DNA of 64,000 nucleotides from Shigella phage CM1. A model generated the notes under the pieces. That model did no database searches and had not been told where the DNA came from. It saw only the letters and a program-made list of their open reading frames with translations. Below, one piece after another: positions 422 to 57,621 of this stretch. The position numbers and the translations under genes were made by a program. The DNA lies in the sequence record MK962749; one strand, 5' to 3'. How positions within the stretch are numbered: the stretch's first letter is position 1; every line of letters begins with the position of its first letter.

Positions 422-976
422 TTACTCCCCGCTGTCAATAGCAAAACTCATTGCAATACGGTATGCCTCTTCTAATGGTAAGAGTCTCCCCCACACATCC
501 CAACCGACATCAAGCTGCCTGCCAAACAACTGTTGTGTGGTTCCGTGAGCATGACCGAACAGTTGGACTGATCCGTGAGGCTTTCTGTTCCACTTTGCAA
601 ATTGGTAATGGCTCATACAGATCAAATTCTTGTTGTGGCGAAGCTCGTAATAATCTACAACCTCATGACCGAACTCTTTCATAATTCTGACAGTCGTCCT
701 TGTGTCATGGTTGCCACGAACAAGAATAATATGTCCGTTCAACATATTTAGAATATCTGGAAGTAAGTTGTTGATATTCTTATCATTAGTGCACGCAATA
801 TCTCCCAAGTGGAACACAGTGTCTGCAGGTGACACAACAGAGTTCCACTCGGCGATGATTCCCGCATTCATACTGTCAAGATTGTGATCATACTGAGATC
901 TGTGTTTTTGACATGAATCGAACTCCATGACCCGCTGGTGGAGAAAGTGTGTGTCGCTTGTTACAAAGTATTTCAT
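422..976 (-). CDS. calcineurin-like metallophosphoesterase (putative 3' end-healing phosphatase)
   Basis: Start taken at internal MKYF (GGAGGG-like RBS upstream); motifs DxH (SDTHF), GD (HLGDIA), GNHD (RGNHD), GHxH (GHAHG). Confidence 0.75.
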   Translation of the reverse strand: MKYFVTSDTHFLHQRVMEFDSCQKHRSQYDHNLDSMNAGIIAEWNSVVSPADTVFHLGDIACTNDKNINNLLPDILNMLNGHIILVRGNHDTRTTVRIMKEFGHEVVDYYELRHNKNLICMSHYQFAKWNRKPHGSVQLFGHAHGTTQQLFGRQLDVGWDVWGRLLPLEEAYRIAMSFAIDSGE

Positions 977-983
977 ACATCCC

Positions 984-1394
984 TCATTTAAGTTTAATGC
1001 AGTTTTTAAGCTGGCGTTCCATACGATCCACAACCTTGTCTGGAACATCATGAATGCTTTTATTACCGTGGCGGTTTTCAACCACGATCACGGTATAACT
1101 ATACCCATGACTGATTGCCATGTCAACATATTCCTGCACATGTTTTTCTTTTGTAAACGTATTACTTACCACGATACGGTCGTATCCCATACGCATCGTA
1201 TCTTCTACGTTATCTTTGCACCATTTTGCTGCGAGTGTTACTTTACTTGCATCCCAGTTGTAATTGCCGTCATCGTCATACCAGAACATGTCGTTCTCAA
1301 AATGTGGATACAGACCCTCTAAAGATAGCGCATTTGCCAGTGTTGATTTGCCAGACCCTGGTAGACCACGCACGATATATAGCATTTTAGACAT
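984..1394 (-). CDS. P-loop polynucleotide kinase-like protein
   Basis: Start taken at MSKMLYIV (GGAGGG RBS); Walker A GLPGSGKST; size and layout like the T4 Pnk kinase domain. Confidence 0.6.
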   Translation of the reverse strand: MSKMLYIVRGLPGSGKSTLANALSLEGLYPHFENDMFWYDDDGNYNWDASKVTLAAKWCKDNVEDTMRMGYDRIVVSNTFTKEKHVQEYVDMAISHGYSYTVIVVENRHGNKSIHDVPDKVVDRMERQLKNCIKLK

Positions 1395-1494
1395 AGTAAC
1401 CCTCCGTTTTAATTTCGATGATAGTATACCTAACTGTTTTGTTAATTTCAAGTGTTGACACTGGGTTATTTGTGTGGCAGGATAAAGGGACAAA

Positions 1495-2430
1495 ATGACA
1501 AATGAGGAACGTATGATGAAGTATTTTAATGCAGACGACCTAGTTGACAAAGGTCTTGTAACCAGCAGATATCACCCAGACCTTGGGTTAAAGATCTATA
1601 AATATGCCAGAAAAGTATTCTACAACAACTTATGGCATTTGTCTCCTCGATTACTGGAGTGCCGAGGCATTGTTGTCGGTAATGAAGGAAATGTTGTGGC
1701 ATGGCCCTTTACAAAAGTGTTTAACTTGGGAGAAAACTCCACCAACCTGCCTGACAATAAGCTTGTGACGGCGGTAGAGAAAAAGAACGGATTCCTTGGT
1801 GTGGTGTCATCTCATAAAGGTGAACTATTGTTCTCAACAACCGGGTCTCTTGATTCTCCATATTGTAACCTTGCAAAGGAAACCATCCAGGAGCAATGTG
1901 GTAATTTAGATCTTATCAAGAAGGTTATGGGCAATGAAAATATGACATTCATGTTTGAAATTTGTCACCCCTCAGATCCGCATATTGTTCAGGAAGATCA
2001 TGGCGCATATTTGATAGGTTGCAGATATAATGATTCTGGAATAATGCTACCAGAAGCAGCTTTAGATGGGATTGCCAAATACCTTGGTGCAAAACGTCCT
2101 CACACTGTGCGTGAAATTCCGTTCAGTTATGCAAAAGAATTAGCTGCAGAAACAAGAGGTGAAGGGTATATGATTCGTAAGCCTTACTACCCTTATGATC
2201 TGCAGCTGAAGATTAAGTCTCCATACTATCTGGCACGGAAGGCCGTAATGAGGGGTAAAGCTTGGAAGATTTGGGATGATGATATCTTTAAACGTGTTGA
2301 CGAAGAGTTTTACGGCATGGTAAACTTCATTCGTAACAACTACACAGATGATGTATGGAACTGCCTCCTGGAGCAGGAACGCCGTGAGATACTCGATTAC
2401 TATTTCCACAACGAGAACTATATGCAATGA
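1495..2430 (+). CDS. RNA ligase (Rnl1-like)
   Basis: 311 aa; nucleotidyltransferase motif I KxNG (VEKKNGF) near residue 96, as in T4 Rnl1; divergent from kinase/phosphatase pair. Confidence 0.7.
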   Translation: MTNEERMMKYFNADDLVDKGLVTSRYHPDLGLKIYKYARKVFYNNLWHLSPRLLECRGIVVGNEGNVVAWPFTKVFNLGENSTNLPDNKLVTAVEKKNGFLGVVSSHKGELLFSTTGSLDSPYCNLAKETIQEQCGNLDLIKKVMGNENMTFMFEICHPSDPHIVQEDHGAYLIGCRYNDSGIMLPEAALDGIAKYLGAKRPHTVREIPFSYAKELAAETRGEGYMIRKPYYPYDLQLKIKSPYYLARKAVMRGKAWKIWDDDIFKRVDEEFYGMVNFIRNNYTDDVWNCLLEQERREILDYYFHNENYMQ

Positions 2431-2777
2431 AGAAGTTGATTGTGTGGCTAGATGACTTGAGAGATCCGTCAAATTACGGGCTCCAAGACGCTGTTTGGCT
2501 AAAGAATTCCTCCGAGTTTATAGATTTTATTAACGATAATAGAAAGCTCTACAGACGCGTTTCTGAGTGGCATATGGACAACGACCTTGGAGAGGTATTC
2601 GAAGGGTACGATTGCCTATCTATGTTGGAGGAAAAATTTGTATTTGGTAAGCCTCCTGTAGTTGCCAACGTGAAGATTTTCGTGCATACTTCTAACCCAT
2701 CAGCGGCTCGTAAATTCATGCTTGCAGCTGACTCGTTTAAAAAGTTTGGAATAGAGATTAAACAAAACATCTACTGA
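2427..2777 (+). CDS. hypothetical protein
   Basis: 116-aa ORF, start overlaps upstream stop (ATGA); no recognised motif. Confidence 0.45.
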   Translation: MKKLIVWLDDLRDPSNYGLQDAVWLKNSSEFIDFINDNRKLYRRVSEWHMDNDLGEVFEGYDCLSMLEEKFVFGKPPVVANVKIFVHTSNPSAARKFMLAADSFKKFGIEIKQNIY

Positions 2778-2785
2778 GGACACTT

Positions 2786-3547
2786 ATGCGACGACTGATT
2801 ATTATCTCCGGTGCTGGTTTGAGCGCTGAATCTGGTATTCCCACTTTCCGATCTGGTAGCACTGCAATGTGGGAGAATTTCAGCATCGATGAGGTGTGCA
2901 ACATCCACACCTTTGCCAAGAACTACTATAAGGTGCATGACTTTTACAATGCACGTCGTGTAGCTTTAGGCAGTGTTGAGCCTAACCTTGCACATCTTCG
3001 GATCGCTGAGTGGTATTCCCGCTGGTCTGGTCGTGTGATCAACCTTACCACCAATGTAGATGATTTGCTGGAGCGTGCTGGTGTAAAACATGAAGATATT
3101 TTACATGTCCACGGGTATTTGCCAGAAATAGTCTATGAGGACGATGAAGGAAGTGACGTCATTAAGGACATTGGATACTCTGAGGTAGACGCAGGAAAGT
3201 ATACCTGGGTTAAGCCTAATGTGGTGTTCTTCGGAGAAGTAGCTCCGAAGTATACAGACATGTATGACCTGTTGACTTCTTTTACGAGCAATGATATGGT
3301 TATCCTTGTAGGGTGCTCCAACACAGTTATCAATTTTAACTGGGAGCTATTCCCTGCCTGCAATAAGGGAACCAAACTACTGATCGTTAATAAATACGAC
3401 TCACAGCATCTAGAGGAGAATGGCATTTCACGTAGTGATATTTACCAGTATGAGGATCGCGGCATCCCAGTTTGGTTTAACGGTGCGGTTGATGCCTTCT
3501 CTGATAAAACATTCATTGAGACTGTAGAAAACTTTATGGAACTTTAA
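2786..3547 (+). CDS. Sir2-family NAD-dependent deacylase / ADP-ribosyltransferase, zinc-less
   Basis: GAGLSAESGIPTFRS (Rossmann GAGxS..GIPxFR), TTNVDDL, catalytic-His region HVHG, VVFFGE; no CxxC pairs between. Confidence 0.8.
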   Translation: MRRLIIISGAGLSAESGIPTFRSGSTAMWENFSIDEVCNIHTFAKNYYKVHDFYNARRVALGSVEPNLAHLRIAEWYSRWSGRVINLTTNVDDLLERAGVKHEDILHVHGYLPEIVYEDDEGSDVIKDIGYSEVDAGKYTWVKPNVVFFGEVAPKYTDMYDLLTSFTSNDMVILVGCSNTVINFNWELFPACNKGTKLLIVNKYDSQHLEENGISRSDIYQYEDRGIPVWFNGAVDAFSDKTFIETVENFMEL

Positions 3548-3560
3548 AAGGAGACCTTTA

Positions 3561-4274
3561 ATGCTGAATACTAAATTAATTGACAACCTGGAAAAACTAT
3601 CCCAACCTGAAAACTACCTTTGGTCTGCCAACTGGGTGGAAAACTGGAACCGTGTGGCAGCTAAAGTGAAAAAATCATACACACCATTCGAATTACAGCT
3701 TAGCTTCATTGAGGAAGAGTTCAATGAAGTTTTGGAAGAGCTGGAGAAAGGTGATGGTGGAGATCACCTGCTAAAGGAGGCCTGCGATCTTCACGTTGTC
3801 ACAAGTTATGCAGCTTATCTTGTTAATGACAATCACGAAAAGTGGTCAAACCTGTTTGATAATCCACAAGGTCTTAAGTTCAAGATCGGTGAGTTCTATG
3901 ACACACTGATCGCTGCGAAAAACACATCCAAGCAAAGAGCGTCAGCTTACCGTTTAGCGGAGTTGTCAACAGCTTTGCTGTTCCAGCTTCGCGGCGATGT
4001 GTGCGGGATGATGCGTAAGGTTCTCAAATCGAATGACAGCAAGTTTGCACGGGTCAACCATCTACGGTATTCACACGGTGCCAGTGCAGATATGCCTGCT
4101 GAACAACTCATAGAGTTGGAGATTAAAGATCTTGAGCGACGCTTTGATGGTCGATATGAAGGTTTTGTTGCTAAGGAAGAATTCTACAACGGTAATAAAG
4201 TTATCATATTCCTTGACAGTAAAGGTAAGATCATGAAGCCTTCGAGCTTCAAGGATGTAGCAGAGTATATTTAA
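3561..4274 (+). CDS. possible MazG-like all-alpha NTP pyrophosphohydrolase
   Basis: 237 aa; ExxE...ExxD acidic pattern (IEEEFNEVLEELEKG ... KEACDL). Confidence 0.35.
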   Translation: MLNTKLIDNLEKLSQPENYLWSANWVENWNRVAAKVKKSYTPFELQLSFIEEEFNEVLEELEKGDGGDHLLKEACDLHVVTSYAAYLVNDNHEKWSNLFDNPQGLKFKIGEFYDTLIAAKNTSKQRASAYRLAELSTALLFQLRGDVCGMMRKVLKSNDSKFARVNHLRYSHGASADMPAEQLIELEIKDLERRFDGRYEGFVAKEEFYNGNKVIIFLDSKGKIMKPSSFKDVAEYI

Positions 4275-4337
4275 CAACATGGCCGGGATTACCCGGCTTT
4301 ACTTGTTGTGGAAAGTATGCAAGTGAGGCAGATAGTT

Positions 4338-4646
4338 ATGTACAAGCACTCTAGAGATCTTGAAAACGATGCTGTGTTTGGGGATCAGATGAAAGAGTTG
4401 GTTAAACTTATAGGCAGGATAGAGGATAAGTTTGACACTAAGATCTACATCGATAGCAAGATCTTCAACCACAAAATATGGACAAATGTGTGTGTTGGGC
4501 TACATGGTGATAAAGATATTGTAAATTTGGTTGTAATAAAGTTCATAGTGTGGCAGAATAGGACTATACGTTATTCCGATCCACACTTACTTGTTTATCC
4601 TATAAAAGACCTACTACAGAAGGAGGACTGCAATGCCGTTATTTAA
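4338..4646 (+). CDS. hypothetical protein
   Basis: ORF 4308-4646; start placed at MYKHS with GAGG upstream. Confidence 0.35.
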   Translation: MYKHSRDLENDAVFGDQMKELVKLIGRIEDKFDTKIYIDSKIFNHKIWTNVCVGLHGDKDIVNLVVIKFIVWQNRTIRYSDPHLLVYPIKDLLQKEDCNAVI

Positions 4647-4902
4647 TCTTGCTAAACCTGTAGAAGCACACCAGTTTGATGGAAGCTCTTCATCAGTATC
4701 TGATCTGCAACGGTGGGTTGATACAGGTGTGTTTACATCGTCACCTGTTCGGACCAGAGATATTCGTCGCATGTGTGAGCTTGTTGAGCCGTTTGGCAAC
4801 TTGGTTTTGTACCAGGGAGATTGGTTAGTTGACTTTATGGGAGACTGGTTGGTAATGAGTAAAGAAGAGATGTTTAAAATTTTTAAGGAAGAGGCCGAGT
4901 AA
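4633..4902 (+). CDS. hypothetical protein
   Basis: 89-aa ORF, coupled to neighbours. Confidence 0.4.
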   Translation: MPLFNLAKPVEAHQFDGSSSSVSDLQRWVDTGVFTSSPVRTRDIRRMCELVEPFGNLVLYQGDWLVDFMGDWLVMSKEEMFKIFKEEAE

Positions 4903-6185
4903 TGCATCAAATCAAAACAACACTGTACGCACTGAACAAAGATGGCAGCTACCAACAGTGGAAAGTATTCACTGATGGCGAAAAGGTTATCGTAGAGTTT
5001 GGCAAGCTTGACGGTAAATTGCAGTACAAAGAGACGGTATGCACACCTAAAAACGTAGGTCGTGCCAACGAGACTACAGCTGAGCAACAGGCCGAGCTTG
5101 AGGCTATCAGCAAGTGGGAAAAACAAGTCCGTCTGGGGTATGTTGAAAACATGGAAGATTGCGAGCAGGGTGTTGATCTTTTACCTATGCTGGTGCATGA
5201 CTACCTGAAGCGTGGCAAGGCACTTAAATTACCTTGCTGGATCTTGCGTAAGTTAGATGGCCTTCGTCTGCTTGTTGTTTTCCAAAATGGTGAGCCTAAA
5301 TTTATTTCCCGTGGTAATAAGTCCTACCCTATTCAAGGAAAGCTTTTAGAGCAACTTCGTTCTTTCCATTCTACCACTGGGATTAAACAACTTGATGGGG
5401 AACTATACATTCATGGTCTTCCTTTGCAGAAAATAGTGTCTCTTGCTAAACGGTGGCGCACACAGGAAGAGATTCAGGCCGAGATCGATAAAGACTACAA
5501 GGCAGATAAAAAACGCCGTCATGCAGCAATTAAGGCAGGCTTATCAACATACAAAAACTTCAACAAGGTAGATATTCCTGTCGATGTTGAGCCTGTTCGT
5601 GATGATTTGCGTTACGGTGGATACTGTAGCTACGATCTGGAGTATCACATTTTTGATATTCCTAGCGACAAGGTGTGGTGGGATCCAGAAACAGAGTCTG
5701 GACGCTGCAAGGATCTTATGGATGCAGAGGATACCGTTACCACTCTGATGCTTGATCATATCAAGGTTGTTGACGCAGAGCTTGCGTACACAGTTGATCA
5801 TTGCGAAGAATCTGTTGGTATATTCATGTCCGAAGGATATGAAGGTACTATCATGCGTAATTTCTGCGGTAAATATGAGTATGGTCAGCGAACATCTGAA
5901 GCATTGAAATGGAAAAAGTTCAACGACGCAGAGGTGAAAGTTATTGACGTTGAGAAAGATAAGAATGATGAAGGTGTTCTTATCTGTGTTGACAAGGAAG
6001 GTGTTGTTGTTAAAATGAAGATGAAAGGCACGCACGAGGAGCGTAGCTATGACAGGATGCAGGAAATGATCGGCAAGTTTGTCACCTTCAAATATCAAGC
6101 AAGGACAGAAGACAACAACTACCAATTCCCTGTCGGTATCTGCGTCCGAAATGTTAACCCAGATACTTGGGAGGTTCTGGAATGA
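4902..6185 (+). CDS. ATP-dependent ligase (probable DNA ligase)
   Basis: 427 aa; motif I KLDGLR, motif IV-like EGTIMR, motif V-like LKWKKF. Confidence 0.65.
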   Translation: MHQIKTTLYALNKDGSYQQWKVFTDGEKVIVEFGKLDGKLQYKETVCTPKNVGRANETTAEQQAELEAISKWEKQVRLGYVENMEDCEQGVDLLPMLVHDYLKRGKALKLPCWILRKLDGLRLLVVFQNGEPKFISRGNKSYPIQGKLLEQLRSFHSTTGIKQLDGELYIHGLPLQKIVSLAKRWRTQEEIQAEIDKDYKADKKRRHAAIKAGLSTYKNFNKVDIPVDVEPVRDDLRYGGYCSYDLEYHIFDIPSDKVWWDPETESGRCKDLMDAEDTVTTLMLDHIKVVDAELAYTVDHCEESVGIFMSEGYEGTIMRNFCGKYEYGQRTSEALKWKKFNDAEVKVIDVEKDKNDEGVLICVDKEGVVVKMKMKGTHEERSYDRMQEMIGKFVTFKYQARTEDNNYQFPVGICVRNVNPDTWEVLE

Positions 6186-6861: not shown

Positions 6862-7623
6862 ATGACGATACATTTCTTTTTTAATGATCACTATCCTTAT
6901 TGGTACAAGGATGGCGATCTAATCTTTTGGAAACCTGGCTACAGTAGGAATGGAAATAGGGCTGGACACTACAACAAAAAGACTGGATATTTCCAAGTGT
7001 ACAATAAGCTGACAAATGTTAAACGTGGCAGACATAGGGAAATTTTTGACATGTTTTATGGATGTGTCACAGATACTTGGCATATCGATCATATCGTCTC
7101 TAAGAAAAATTCTACTAACGGAGTGCCTGTAGACAAGATAGAAAACCTTCAAATGTTGAAGCCATGGGATAACTACTGTAAGAGAGCCTTGGAAAATGTA
7201 CAAAGCAATAATACCTCTACAGTGACTGGTGTGGTATGGCTGAAAAGAGAGGGTAAGTGGAGGGCAAGTAGAAGGATAAATAGGGTAAATGTTAGGTTGG
7301 GAGATTTTGACACTTTCGAAGAGGCTAAATCTAGGATTGAATGGTCGATAGCTAACCCGGAAGAGGCTTTAAAGATAGTTCCAAACCCGCACAAGAATAA
7401 TATCCTGCCCGGTATTGATTGGTCTAAGAAAGATACCTGTTGGAGGGCACGAGATAACAAAGGAAGAAACTTAAGGTGCTTCAACGACAGGAAGTGGCTA
7501 AATCCGTGGTGGGAGGCAGTTTGTGCAAGAAAGTCTTGGGAAGTAAACTGTCTCTACGGAGAGATGTCACTAACTGAGTGGAAGTTATCCAGAGGCTATC
7601 CAAGACCTTGTGTTGAGGATTAA
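6862..7623 (+). CDS. HNH homing endonuclease with AP2 domain
   Basis: HNH core HIDHIV...N...ENLQ; AP2-like TGVVWLKREGKWRASRRINRVNVRLGDFDTFEEAKSR. Confidence 0.75.
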   Translation: MTIHFFFNDHYPYWYKDGDLIFWKPGYSRNGNRAGHYNKKTGYFQVYNKLTNVKRGRHREIFDMFYGCVTDTWHIDHIVSKKNSTNGVPVDKIENLQMLKPWDNYCKRALENVQSNNTSTVTGVVWLKREGKWRASRRINRVNVRLGDFDTFEEAKSRIEWSIANPEEALKIVPNPHKNNILPGIDWSKKDTCWRARDNKGRNLRCFNDRKWLNPWWEAVCARKSWEVNCLYGEMSLTEWKLSRGYPRPCVED

Positions 7624-9019: not shown

Positions 9020-10151
9020 AGAATATCCACTTATTGAGTCCATAGATTGTCTGGCTGATCTTCTTGAACCTGACGCTATAGTTTATTATGACTTCGATCA
9101 GGTTGCATATCAAGCTGCAGCAAGTTGTGAAAAAAGGACAATTGAGGTAACACACAAAGCCTCCGGACGTAAGAAGATGTTTAAAACACGAACAGAGTTC
9201 TGGGGGCGGCAGAAGAACACCGTTGGTGGTTGGTTAAAAGCTGAGAATACCAACCGTGAAGCTGCATGTAAAAAGGCTGGCAAGGAGTTTATTCCGTGGA
9301 CACGAGAAGATTTCGATGTCTTGGATATCCAAACCCCTGATCCTGTAGAGAACTGCTTGCACACAATTAAGTGTAAAGCTAATGCAGTCCTTAACTATCT
9401 CGGTATTCCGGAAGATCGGTGCGTGGGGGTACTTGGAGGCACAGGTAATTTCAGACTAGATCTTCCCATGCCGGAAAGATATAAAGCCAACCGTAACAAT
9501 ACTCTTCGACCACTGCTGCTTGGAGATGCAAGACAGTATCTCCAAAAGCAGTATAATGCTCAAGTGATCAACGGTATCGAGGCTGACGACTGGTTAGCTA
9601 TCCAGCAATTTGAAGGTTGGAACCACTACCAAAAAACAGGTAAGTTCAACAAGTTTATTATCTCTATTGATAAGGACCAAAGAACACTGCCGGGGCTTGT
9701 GTTCGATCCCATGCGAAACGATAAGGGAGATTTTGTAAGGGAAACCCCTATGCTGATCGATAACGGTATGGGGAACATCTTCATGAAGCCTAATGGAGAG
9801 GTTGGTGGTTACGGAATGCTGTTCTTCGGATACCAAATGCTGTGTGGTGACTCTGCCGACAATATCAAGCCGTATCAAGGACTTATCGGTAAGGGTAAGT
9901 TCGGGGATGCCTCAGCATTCTACCTACTGTCTCAGTGCAGCACTCCAAAGGAGATGTGGGTGGCTATTATTGATCAGTACAAGAAGTGGTTCCCGAAAGG
10001 TGTTGTTAAGTATACTGACTTCAATGGTGTTGATCGTAGAATTTCCGTAGGTCAATGGATGAGTATAATTTTTGACTGTTTGTATATGAAGCGAACATTC
10101 AATGATCAAACAAAACTTGTTAACGTTCTTAGAAATGTTGGAGCAATTTGA
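9012..10151 (+). CDS. 5'-3' exonuclease / flap endonuclease (T4 RNase H-like)
   Basis: N-terminal acidic YYDFDQVAYQ, GIEADDWLA, GDSADNIKP (GDxxDN) match FEN/T4 rnh signatures. Confidence 0.65.
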   Translation: MSREYPLIESIDCLADLLEPDAIVYYDFDQVAYQAAASCEKRTIEVTHKASGRKKMFKTRTEFWGRQKNTVGGWLKAENTNREAACKKAGKEFIPWTREDFDVLDIQTPDPVENCLHTIKCKANAVLNYLGIPEDRCVGVLGGTGNFRLDLPMPERYKANRNNTLRPLLLGDARQYLQKQYNAQVINGIEADDWLAIQQFEGWNHYQKTGKFNKFIISIDKDQRTLPGLVFDPMRNDKGDFVRETPMLIDNGMGNIFMKPNGEVGGYGMLFFGYQMLCGDSADNIKPYQGLIGKGKFGDASAFYLLSQCSTPKEMWVAIIDQYKKWFPKGVVKYTDFNGVDRRISVGQWMSIIFDCLYMKRTFNDQTKLVNVLRNVGAI

Positions 10152-56747: not shown

Positions 56748-57206
56748 TCAACACTTTTTGTACTCCACCACGACAATATCTATGTCGAAAGTGGCAAGGT
56801 TAATAACGTCCTCTACGTGTTCCCACTTCAAACCGCCTATGCCGCACCCGATCTTAGGTATGTAGAATGGTAAAGTCGATCCGCTGAATACTTCATTGAC
56901 TAGCTCAAAGCCTTTCAGGATTGAGAAATACTCAGCATTAGGTCCTGGGTAGAACTGGGTATATAGATTGATTCCGTAGACAATACCTATCGGAGATAAG
57001 TGCTCCCATCGGGAGAACGCACCCAGTTTACTTAGGCAACCGTATCTAGTCTCTTTGTCGGCTGACAGTGCTTGAGGAAACTCACGGGCAATCTGTTTTG
57101 CTATACCCTTGCCCATTGTGTGGAAGCAGTTACAACCGTGGATCAGGTGACCAGCACCGCTCTTAAAAAGGGAGATTAAATCTCCCTCTACAGTATCAAT
57201 AATCAC
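56748..57206 (-). CDS. macrodomain protein, TARG1/OARD1 (DarG-like) family ADP-ribosyl hydrolase
   Basis: GAGHLIHGCNCFHTMGKGIAKQIAREFP and IPKIGCGIGGLKWEHVEDVI match remembered TARG1 segments; start set at GTG (about 152 aa). Confidence 0.65.
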   Translation of the reverse strand: MIIDTVEGDLISLFKSGAGHLIHGCNCFHTMGKGIAKQIAREFPQALSADKETRYGCLSKLGAFSRWEHLSPIGIVYGINLYTQFYPGPNAEYFSILKGFELVNEVFSGSTLPFYIPKIGCGIGGLKWEHVEDVINLATFDIDIVVVEYKKC

Positions 57207-57621
57207 GGTAAGCCAGCTCCTCTTCCGCAATTTCAAAAAACTCAGTCCAGCACTGTGGCATATTGGAGTTACCGAAGTGGCTTTCATAGTAAAGGTTCTT
57301 ACCGCTAGGAAGGTAGAAATCTGTTACCTCATAAAATCCACAATCGTCGCACTCACCTTCTTCAAACTTGGCCTTAACCTTAATACCGAGGAAGGTGAAA
57401 AGTTTATGGACATCTTCAGTTTCGAACTCCCAGGGAATGTTGTTTTCCGCATCGGTGTAGAACTGGATCAGCAGACCATTGTCCAGTTTACCAAAATACT
57501 CTGTGAAGTAACTTCCTTCCCAGAAATCTTTATGACAAATAATATCCATGCGTTTGCCCATAATAATGGTGTGAGCGTTTTGGGCATCGTCACGAATCAG
57601 TTTTGGCATTTCATAGATCAT
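57196..57621 (-). CDS. hypothetical protein
   Basis: 141-aa ORF. Confidence 0.45.
   Translation of the reverse strand: MIYEMPKLIRDDAQNAHTIIMGKRMDIICHKDFWEGSYFTEYFGKLDNGLLIQFYTDAENNIPWEFETEDVHKLFTFLGIKVKAKFEEGECDDCGFYEVTDFYLPSGKNLYYESHFGNSNMPQCWTEFFEIAEEELAYRDY

Follow-up and report, generated by a model that had tools for sequence, protein, structure and literature searches.

A zinc-less CobB/SIRT5-like sirtuin in the RNA ligase-cREC operon of Shigella phage CM1 and its possible role in RNA repair

The window discussed here is a stretch of 64,000 nucleotides from Shigella phage CM1 (MK962749), which is of the Vequintavirus (rV5-like) E. coli myovirus type and shares 97-99% identity with rV5-type genomes. 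It encodes a 253-residue sirtuin, which in public records is mostly labelled "Sir2 NAD-dependent deacetylase". The protein is very probably an intact sirtuin that consumes nicotinamide adenine dinucleotide (NAD+) and belongs to a phage-restricted clade that branched off from compact phage sirtuins of the zinc-containing CobB-like (class III) kind and lost its four zinc cysteines but kept the hairpin scaffold. Exactly this sirtuin neighbourhood was reported by Iyer, Burroughs, Anantharaman and Aravind in 2022 (Viruses 14:1977, PMC9503650, section 3.7.3), who predicted that the enzyme is KptA-like and takes 2'-phosphates off RNA. The gene family and its surroundings have thus been known since 2022.

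The sirtuin and its operon

The sirtuin matches Pfam SIR2 (PF02146) at E 4.6e-27 (95.6 bits against a cut-off of 24), with residues 9-181 covering profile positions 1-178 of 180, and it possesses the sirtuin fold. Its motifs are GAGLSAESGIPTFR (9-22), TTNVDDL (88-94), HVHG, which includes His109, and VVFFGE (146-151). The residues of most importance are the catalytic His109, Asn90/Asp92, the anion-binding pair Tyr54-x-x-Arg57 and the FGE loop. Eleven positions (G9, A10, G11, S16, G17, F21, R22, N90, D92, H109 and G110) are invariant across 24 members of the clade. Tyr54, Arg57 and Arg58 are likewise invariant in the clade, as are the FGE loop and the hydrophobic tunnel residues. Judged by its residues, the protein apparently is an active NAD+-consuming sirtuin in which all NAD-binding and catalytic positions are intact.

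Three cysteines are present (C38, C177 and C192). None lies between His109 and Phe148, where the zinc-type relatives carry two CxxC pairs, and this segment is free of cysteine in all 24 clade members and in loci L001-L061 of our survey of related genomes (locus numbers are prefixed L). An AlphaFold2 (AF2) model built on the 24-sequence alignment (pLDDT 89.6, pTM 0.88) retains beta-hairpins at residues 110-128 and 142-146. The zinc ribbon is therefore degenerate and not deleted.

The gene is the third of a tightly coupled operon, which runs from an Rnl1-type RNA ligase through a cREC protein and the sirtuin to a MazG-like protein and ends at a terminator hairpin (Table 1). The start of the cREC gene overlaps the stop of the RNA ligase gene by ATGA (2427-2430), an arrangement indicating translational coupling. 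The cREC stop (2775-2777) is followed by an 8-bp spacer to the sirtuin ATG, with a GAGGA Shine-Dalgarno sequence, and only 13 bp separate the sirtuin stop from the start of the MazG-like open reading frame (ORF). In the record of phage EdH4 a terminator is annotated at the equivalent place. The kinase and the metallophosphoesterase are transcribed divergently from the operon, and the whole cluster looks like a tRNA/RNA break-repair kit. The DNA ligase gene is tabulated as context; synteny shows that it travels with the cluster in L022, L024, L039, L050 and L085.

Table 1. Position and identification of the features discussed in the text.
Feature	Position in window	Strand	Basis
Calcineurin-like metallophosphoesterase, 184 aa, downstream of kinase	422..976	-	Pfam Metallophos_2 E 1.9e-6; RefSeq "phosphoesterase"
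P-loop kinase, 136 aa (AAA_33, polynucleotide-kinase-like)	984..1394	-	Pfam AAA_33 E 2.4e-10; start as annotated in slur16
Rnl1-type (T4 RnlA-like) RNA ligase, first operon gene	1513..2430	+	Pfam RNA_lig_T4_1 E 6.4e-15; RefSeq annotation in slur16
cREC (cyclic-phosphate-processing receiver-like) protein, 116 aa	2427..2777	+	Pfam PF20274 E 5e-15
Zinc-less sirtuin, 253 aa	2786..3547	+	ATG-to-TAA ORF; Pfam SIR2; phage-specific offshoot of class III CobB/SIRT5-like sirtuins
MazG-like nucleotide pyrophosphohydrolase, 237 aa, last operon gene	3561..4274	+	PHROG 671 E 5e-22; RefSeq "nucleotide pyrophosphohydrolase"
GC-rich hairpin with T-rich tail, likely intrinsic terminator of the ligase-cREC-Sir2-MazG operon	4281..4298	+	Terminator scan: 7-bp stem, 6 GC pairs
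ATP-dependent DNA ligase, context only	4902..6185	+	Pfam DNA_ligase_A_M and OB_2
Poa1p/Adpp-like macrodomain (ADP-ribose-1''-phosphate phosphatase family)	56751..57212	-	Pfam Macro partial, 27 bits; PHROG 335 "phosphatase" E 6e-59; PDB ADP-ribose 1''-phosphate phosphatase matches

A sequence-only reading of this DNA had described the gene as a Sir2-family protein with a Rossmann motif, a TQNID-like motif (here TTNVDDL), a catalytic-His region and VVFFGE, lacking the CxxC zinc ribbon and co-operonic with RNA-repair genes, 8 bp behind a coupled small ORF and directly before a MazG-like gene. All of this holds. The small ORF proves to be the cREC domain, and the catalytic His, the integrity of which had been named as a point to be checked, is the invariant residue of HVHG.

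The ORF of the RNA ligase is open from 1495, while the start annotated in slur16 is 1513; its product matches NCBIfam TIGR02308 at E 3e-10, which is below the family cut-off. The acidic REC-type pocket of cREC (WxDD, FDNDLGE, VH(T/S)SNP and KFMLA) is invariant in its homologues. Searches of PDB sequences with the RNA ligase and cREC yielded no usable match, and the MazG-like ORF matches Pfam PRA-PH at E 0.095 only. For window bases 1400-4400 there are 120 phage records with at least 90% identity, and those of rV5_ev147 and slur16 reach 99.2%.

The cREC domain was defined in the 2021 jumbo-phage paper of the same authors who described the sirtuin neighbourhood. Escherichia phage V5 and Proteus phage Mydo are the prototypes of their neighbourhood type 2 (PMC9503650), and the window has this arrangement: the sirtuin lies beside a T4-like RNA ligase, cREC, a nucleotide kinase, MazG and a calcineurin-like phosphoesterase, and the macrodomain gene is not adjacent. 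Gene and neighbourhood are the same as theirs, with no differences at the level of identity. What the present survey adds is that the clade is uniformly zinc-less, and that the sirtuin is no longer linked to the repair genes in Phapecoctavirus and is not linked to them in T5-like phages.

Class III ancestry and loss of zinc

Human SIRT5 and E. coli CobB rank first in a PDB sequence search (E ~4e-21). These two and Archaeoglobus Sir2-Af1 are the best matches of the sirtuin in both sequence and fold, being alike over a core of about 250 residues and having in common the motifs GAGxSxxSGIPxFR, Y-x-x-R, xxNxD, HG and FGE. The Tyr-x-x-Arg pair of class III is aligned as FYNARR against FYHYRR of SIRT5, such that Y54 and R57 correspond to SIRT5 Tyr102/Arg105, which bind an anionic group. 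Both its sequence and its fold mark the protein as a derived sirtuin of class III (CobB/SIRT5-like). It differs from the class in several respects. The four cysteines of the class III zinc ribbon are replaced, TQNID has become TTNVD, the GTSxxVxP substrate-staple motif is altered to GCSNxVINF, and a clade-specific IGY hairpin motif has appeared; moreover, unlike other class III sirtuins, the window-type gene is carried by virulent phages only. The NCBIfam "NAD-dependent protein deacylase" models are the top matches, at scores far below their curated cut-offs (NF001753, 122 bits against 243; NF040867 for CobB, 103 against 320), and for this reason the sirtuin is not an equivalog of these deacylases.

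The absence of zinc ligands had been taken in the sequence-only reading as typical of SirTM-type ADP-ribosyltransferases and Sir2 defence effectors rather than of housekeeping deacetylases, with the macrodomain at 56.7 kb as a possible partner. According to Rack 2015, SirTMs have QG in place of the catalytic HG, a retained zinc-coordinating domain and an operonic macrodomain. None of these features applies to the window sirtuin, which has an invariant HG, lacks the zinc ligands and is most similar in neither structure nor sequence to SirTMs. The defence proteins ThsA, DSR and Sir2-HerA belong to the same superfamily and are zinc-less too, but they are fused to or paired with sensors and only remotely similar; no fusion or pairing with SLOG, HerA, pAgo or a large C-terminal domain is found here. 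Among the PADLOC defence profiles only PDC-S65 responded, at E 0.0076 and without a passing stretch, so that there is no real match. We therefore rejected membership in the SirTMs (HVHG and not QG, no zinc ligands, a macro-like ORF 53 kb away on the other strand) and in the defence Sir2 proteins (ThsA, DSR1/2, Sir2-HerA, SIR2-APAZ). The same reading had accepted that clustering with canonical CobB deacetylases would tell against it; because the sirtuin does cluster with CobB-type sirtuins, that assignment fails. Both versions of it, a SirTM-like ADP-ribosyltransferase of proteins with the macrodomain as its partner and a Sir2 NADase effector of the defence type, are contradicted already and very improbable; what speaks for them is the missing zinc ligands and the occurrence of a macrodomain in the same genome.

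The macrodomain ORF does exist and, from its profile and PDB matches, is a probable ADP-ribose-1''-phosphate phosphatase. Its partnership with the sirtuin was rejected: the two genes are unlinked, 53 kb apart and on opposite strands, and the macrodomain family is present in 2775 phage records, mostly without this Sir2 and including T4-like phages devoid of it, which means that it is no specific partner of the sirtuin. A family member of Vibrio phage Gary dephosphorylates ADP-ribose-1''-phosphate and counters aRES defence (bioRxiv 2026.01.28.702374). The CM1 macrodomain protein might remove a later product of a KptA-like reaction, but there is nothing that links it specifically to the sirtuin.

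In a protein database 859 relatives of the sirtuin were found at E 1e-5 or better, the best of them on contigs of 105-155 kb, and the clade is carried by 1023 phage records (T5-like, rV5-like, phi92-like and Mydo-like). Eighty viral loci split cleanly. Those numbered L001-L061 are at least 43% identical, have TTNVD and are devoid of CxxC pairs. No single pattern holds for the more distant jumbo-phage sirtuins: most of them (L062, L064-L067, L069-L074, L076 and L077 among others) carry two CxxC pairs about 20 residues apart together with TQN(I/V)D, a few show one CxxC in a simple scan, and L075 and L079 show none. In a neighbour-joining (NJ) tree, which is without support values, the zinc-less phage clade forms one group and its sister is a zinc-containing phage group. 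This sister comprises the compact sirtuins of KVP40, Serratia phage BF and metagenomic jumbo contigs, which resemble the window sirtuin in the IGY motif and in having a short small domain, but carry two CxxC pairs and TQN(I/V)D, at an identity of 31-45%. Among 150 representatives at 50% identity, loss of zinc correlates with the change of Gln to Thr (zinc with Gln, 75; no zinc with Thr, 35; zinc with Thr, 10; no zinc with Gln, 9). Longer relatives (300-530 residues) were scanned for domain fusions, and only tandem Sir2 or WG repeats were found.

The best match in 185,579 bacterial and archaeal species genomes is only 42% identical, hence the clade is essentially phage-restricted. The zinc cysteines are also missing from 35 of the 80 bacterial CobB-like homologues sampled (Bacteroidota, Caulobacterales and others; loci L098-L163). 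These zinc-less bacterial sirtuins fall in at least two further independent groups, which suggests that apparently ordinary chromosomal sirtuins have lost zinc several times independently. Since zinc loss recurs among CobB-like sirtuins, it is not diagnostic of changed function.

Gene neighbourhoods and candidate reactions

Seven Sir2 lineages with no more than 46-56% identity to the window protein share a cluster of metallophosphoesterase, kinase, Rnl1, cREC, Sir2, DNA ligase and MazG genes. T5-like phages carry a HAD_SAK_2 "Swiss-army-knife RNA repair" phosphatase (Pfam E 1.3e-20) 124-1311 bp downstream of Sir2, except in one T5-like sublineage, where it is located 281 bp upstream. This linkage totals 30 loci in three Sir2 lineages; it is independent of the rV5-type linkage and has been rearranged yet kept. 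The zinc-type jumbo-phage sirtuins of L063, L068 and L077 are flanked by tRNA genes, and that of Serratia phage BF precedes a gene annotated as a nudix hydrolase, which Iyer et al. regard as a Nudix-cREC fusion (PMC9503650). We judge a link between the sirtuin and RNA repair to be plausible, at slightly less than an even chance.

In the Erwinia-type relatives (L039, ~9300-9790; L050, 9079-9564; L053) a 161-residue protein is encoded after the kinase and just upstream of Sir2, about where cREC is found in the Mydo-type relatives. No cREC was detected in the Erwinia-type relatives, and the 161-residue protein is without Pfam or PDB match, having only phrog_652 (unknown function). Perhaps its function is analogous, as an enzyme processing ADP-ribose or phosphate.

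In the reaction of Tpt1 a phosphate oxygen attacks C1'' of NAD+ and displaces nicotinamide, after which ring closure through the ribose 2''-OH gives a 1'',2''-cyclic product; in sirtuins the nucleophile is an acyl oxygen, and it is the 2''-OH that the catalytic His activates. The two reactions appear to run closely parallel. Because of this parallel and of the recurrent phosphoesterase partners, a KptA-like function is the best single hypothesis, and we tentatively regard an NAD+-dependent step in the repair of RNA ends, analogous to that of KptA/Tpt1 and predicted by Iyer et al., as the most likely role of the sirtuin. That the chemistry is specifically Tpt1-like is possible rather than probable. 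We infer that the substrate would be an RNA phosphate oxygen belonging to an internal or a terminal 2'-PO4 that remains once a 2',3'-cyclic end has been opened. The invariant Tyr54/Arg57 anion site would bind the RNA phosphate, whose oxygen would attack C1'' of NAD+ with expulsion of nicotinamide, and the product might be cleared by phosphoesterases and pyrophosphatases (cREC, macro and MazG).

Between Tpt1/KptA and the sirtuin the proposed NAD+ chemistry is the same, and so is the setting beside kinase, phosphodiesterase and ligase. The folds are unrelated, that of Tpt1/KptA being of the ADP-ribosyltransferase type and that of the sirtuin a Rossmann fold, so the likeness would be one of functional analogy only; the sole Pfam match of the sirtuin is SIR2, and the Tpt1 family PTS_2-RNA is not among its matches. 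That the sirtuin is a non-homologous replacement of Tpt1/KptA we consider somewhat unlikely. In the annotations of three Sir2-less phages (PAK_P2, Aeromonas 2L372X and Vibrio Athena) no KptA was found at the equivalent slot, and on this account non-orthologous displacement is not supported; in two of these phages the slot is occupied by NARP1-type genes together with a macro phosphatase. The replacement idea was printed in 2022 as a prediction, so only its demonstration would be new. If it were true, this would be the first sirtuin with RNA phosphate, and not acyl-lysine, as its substrate, extending sirtuin chemistry from protein deacylation to RNA-end repair. The phages would then possess a yeast-like heal-seal-dephosphorylate type of tRNA repair assembled from unrelated folds, with cREC in place of the 2H phosphodiesterase and the sirtuin in place of Tpt1, and the occurrence of the gene in some 1000 sequenced enterobacterial phages (T5-like, rV5-like, phi92-like and Mydo-like) would be explained.

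Several findings weigh against the KptA-like role and against a link to RNA repair in general. The sirtuin clade is far wider than the ligase and cREC, as the 1023 phage records with Sir2 compare with 840 for Rnl1 and 356 for cREC. In Salmonella phages the respective numbers are 290, 14 and 14, and in Klebsiella phages 131, 39 and 39; from this difference it follows that the T5-like carriers are without phage Rnl1 and cREC. Among enterobacterial phages the distribution of cREC follows that of the RNA ligase. In Phapecoctavirus ECO340P2 (L085, 97-109 kb, and L084) the series cREC, phosphoesterase, ligase, kinase, DNA ligase and MazG is intact at 100.8-106.4 kb, but Sir2 is located at 131.4 kb, 28 kb from the cluster, and adjoins a C5-methyltransferase-like gene (phrog_757). 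The counts by host and this arrangement indicate that cREC tracks the ligase and not Sir2. Metallophosphoesterase, kinase and ligase together would already constitute a complete repair system of the T4/Clostridium type, which leaves no 2'-phosphate. The sirtuin is acidic (pI 4.8, net charge about -15; the clade ranges from pI 4.7 to 5.8), and a clade-specific gain of basic residues is not visible, which is unusual for an RNA-binding enzyme. In addition, every residue needed for ordinary acyl-lysine deacylation is also intact, and a literature search on phage sirtuins, T5 Sir2 and Vequintavirus Sir2 found no experimental work.

A separate observation in ECO340P2 is that a protein with an Acb2/Tad1 hairpin is encoded 4 kb upstream of its Sir2.

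Another explanation is that the protein is an ordinary lysine deacylase of the CobB/SIRT5 type, probably preferring anionic acyls such as succinyl or malonyl, which strips acyl marks from host or phage proteins. Taken by itself this is somewhat unlikely, yet about equally likely as the KptA-like role. It agrees with the ranking of SIRT5 and CobB as best relatives, with the aligned Tyr-x-x-Arg pair, with the deacylase models as top NCBIfam matches, and with the invariance of His109, of the FGE loop and of the residues forming the hydrophobic tunnel. An acidic protein suits a protein-directed enzyme, and the gene occurs in phages lacking any RNA ligase and at unlinked loci. Zinc is also lost in many chromosomal bacterial CobB-like proteins, which need not be the sole sirtuins of their genomes. 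On the other side, the NCBIfam scores do not make it an equivalog, the substrate staple is changed, and the recurrent adjacency to cREC, HAD_SAK_2 and Nudix genes (not to macro or esterase genes) is left unexplained; we know of no characterised deacylase sirtuin that is devoid of zinc. Speculative targets would be the catalytic lysine of either neighbouring ligase (RNA or DNA), or further enzymes blocked by acylation through acetyl-phosphate or succinyl-CoA. If the enzyme were a deacylase, these phages would reset the acylation of host or phage proteins.

A further group of neighbourhoods, which again speaks against the KptA-like role, concerns NAD+ itself. In the Sir2-less phages PAK_P2 (L168, 5968-10831) and Vibrio phage Athena (L170, 5995-11744) an Rnl1-kinase pair is followed by NARP1-type genes, one phosphoribosyl-pyrophosphate-synthetase-like and one NamPT-like, and by a Poa1p-like macro phosphatase. 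This arrangement shows that genes of RNA repair and of NAD reconstitution co-localise repeatedly. In Serratia phage BF (L086, 52.9-63.6 kb) the zinc-type sirtuin stands in one block with nicotinamide mononucleotide adenylyltransferase/ADP-ribose pyrophosphatase, NamPT, Nudix and PhoH genes, a context of NAD salvage. The common theme may be an island of NAD+ and counter-defence genes rather than one shared pathway. The sirtuin could accordingly be a metabolic or counter-defence enzyme centred on NAD+ and ADP-ribose, making or consuming a soluble ADP-ribose derivative; a speculative version is a nicotinamide base exchange that rebuilds NAD+ from products of host NADases resembling ADP-ribose-1''-phosphate. 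We consider this improbable. The block in Serratia phage BF argues for it, as do the NARP1-type and macro phosphatase genes directly downstream of the homologous ligase-kinase cluster in PAK_P2 and Athena, the Adpp/Poa1p-like phosphatase homologue in the window phage, and the fact that MazG, HAD and Nudix partners could act on ADP-ribose derivatives. But no sirtuin running such a reaction productively is known, a plain NADase would harm the phage, neither PADLOC nor an anti-defence family gave a match, and the positional equivalence may be a chance clustering of accessory genes. A NARP1-type NamPT of the window phage was not seen in the sampled match list.

Other features of the window and its relatives

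No tRNA genes were found in the window. In related phages a cluster of seven tRNA genes is located about 3.5 kb upstream of the position corresponding to the window start (slur16/L001, 11-832; L081, 1268-2081), and this includes an odd tRNA-like gene with a four-base anticodon (atcc). The cluster in slur16/L001 counts in favour of the RNA-repair link of the sirtuin.

Some 18-25 records named "Campylobacter phage" (host C. jejuni; MG065655, MG065652 and others) share 93-99% identity with E. coli rV5-like phages across window bases 1400-4400, and their host assignment looks doubtful. Two Sir2 homologues, P0059 of Klebsiella phage vB_Kpn_3 and H122 of Pectobacterium phage DU_PP_V, are annotated as "tail assembly protein", which likely is a mis-annotation.

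An ORF of 253 residues on the plus strand (6862-7623), directly after the endolysin gene, contains an HNH-like motif (HIDHIVSKK) and probably encodes a homing endonuclease; slur16 carries a different annotation for the corresponding region. The cumulative GC skew of the window peaks at about 40 kb, where the coding strand bias also flips, marking a switch in the direction of transcription between two arms of the genome.

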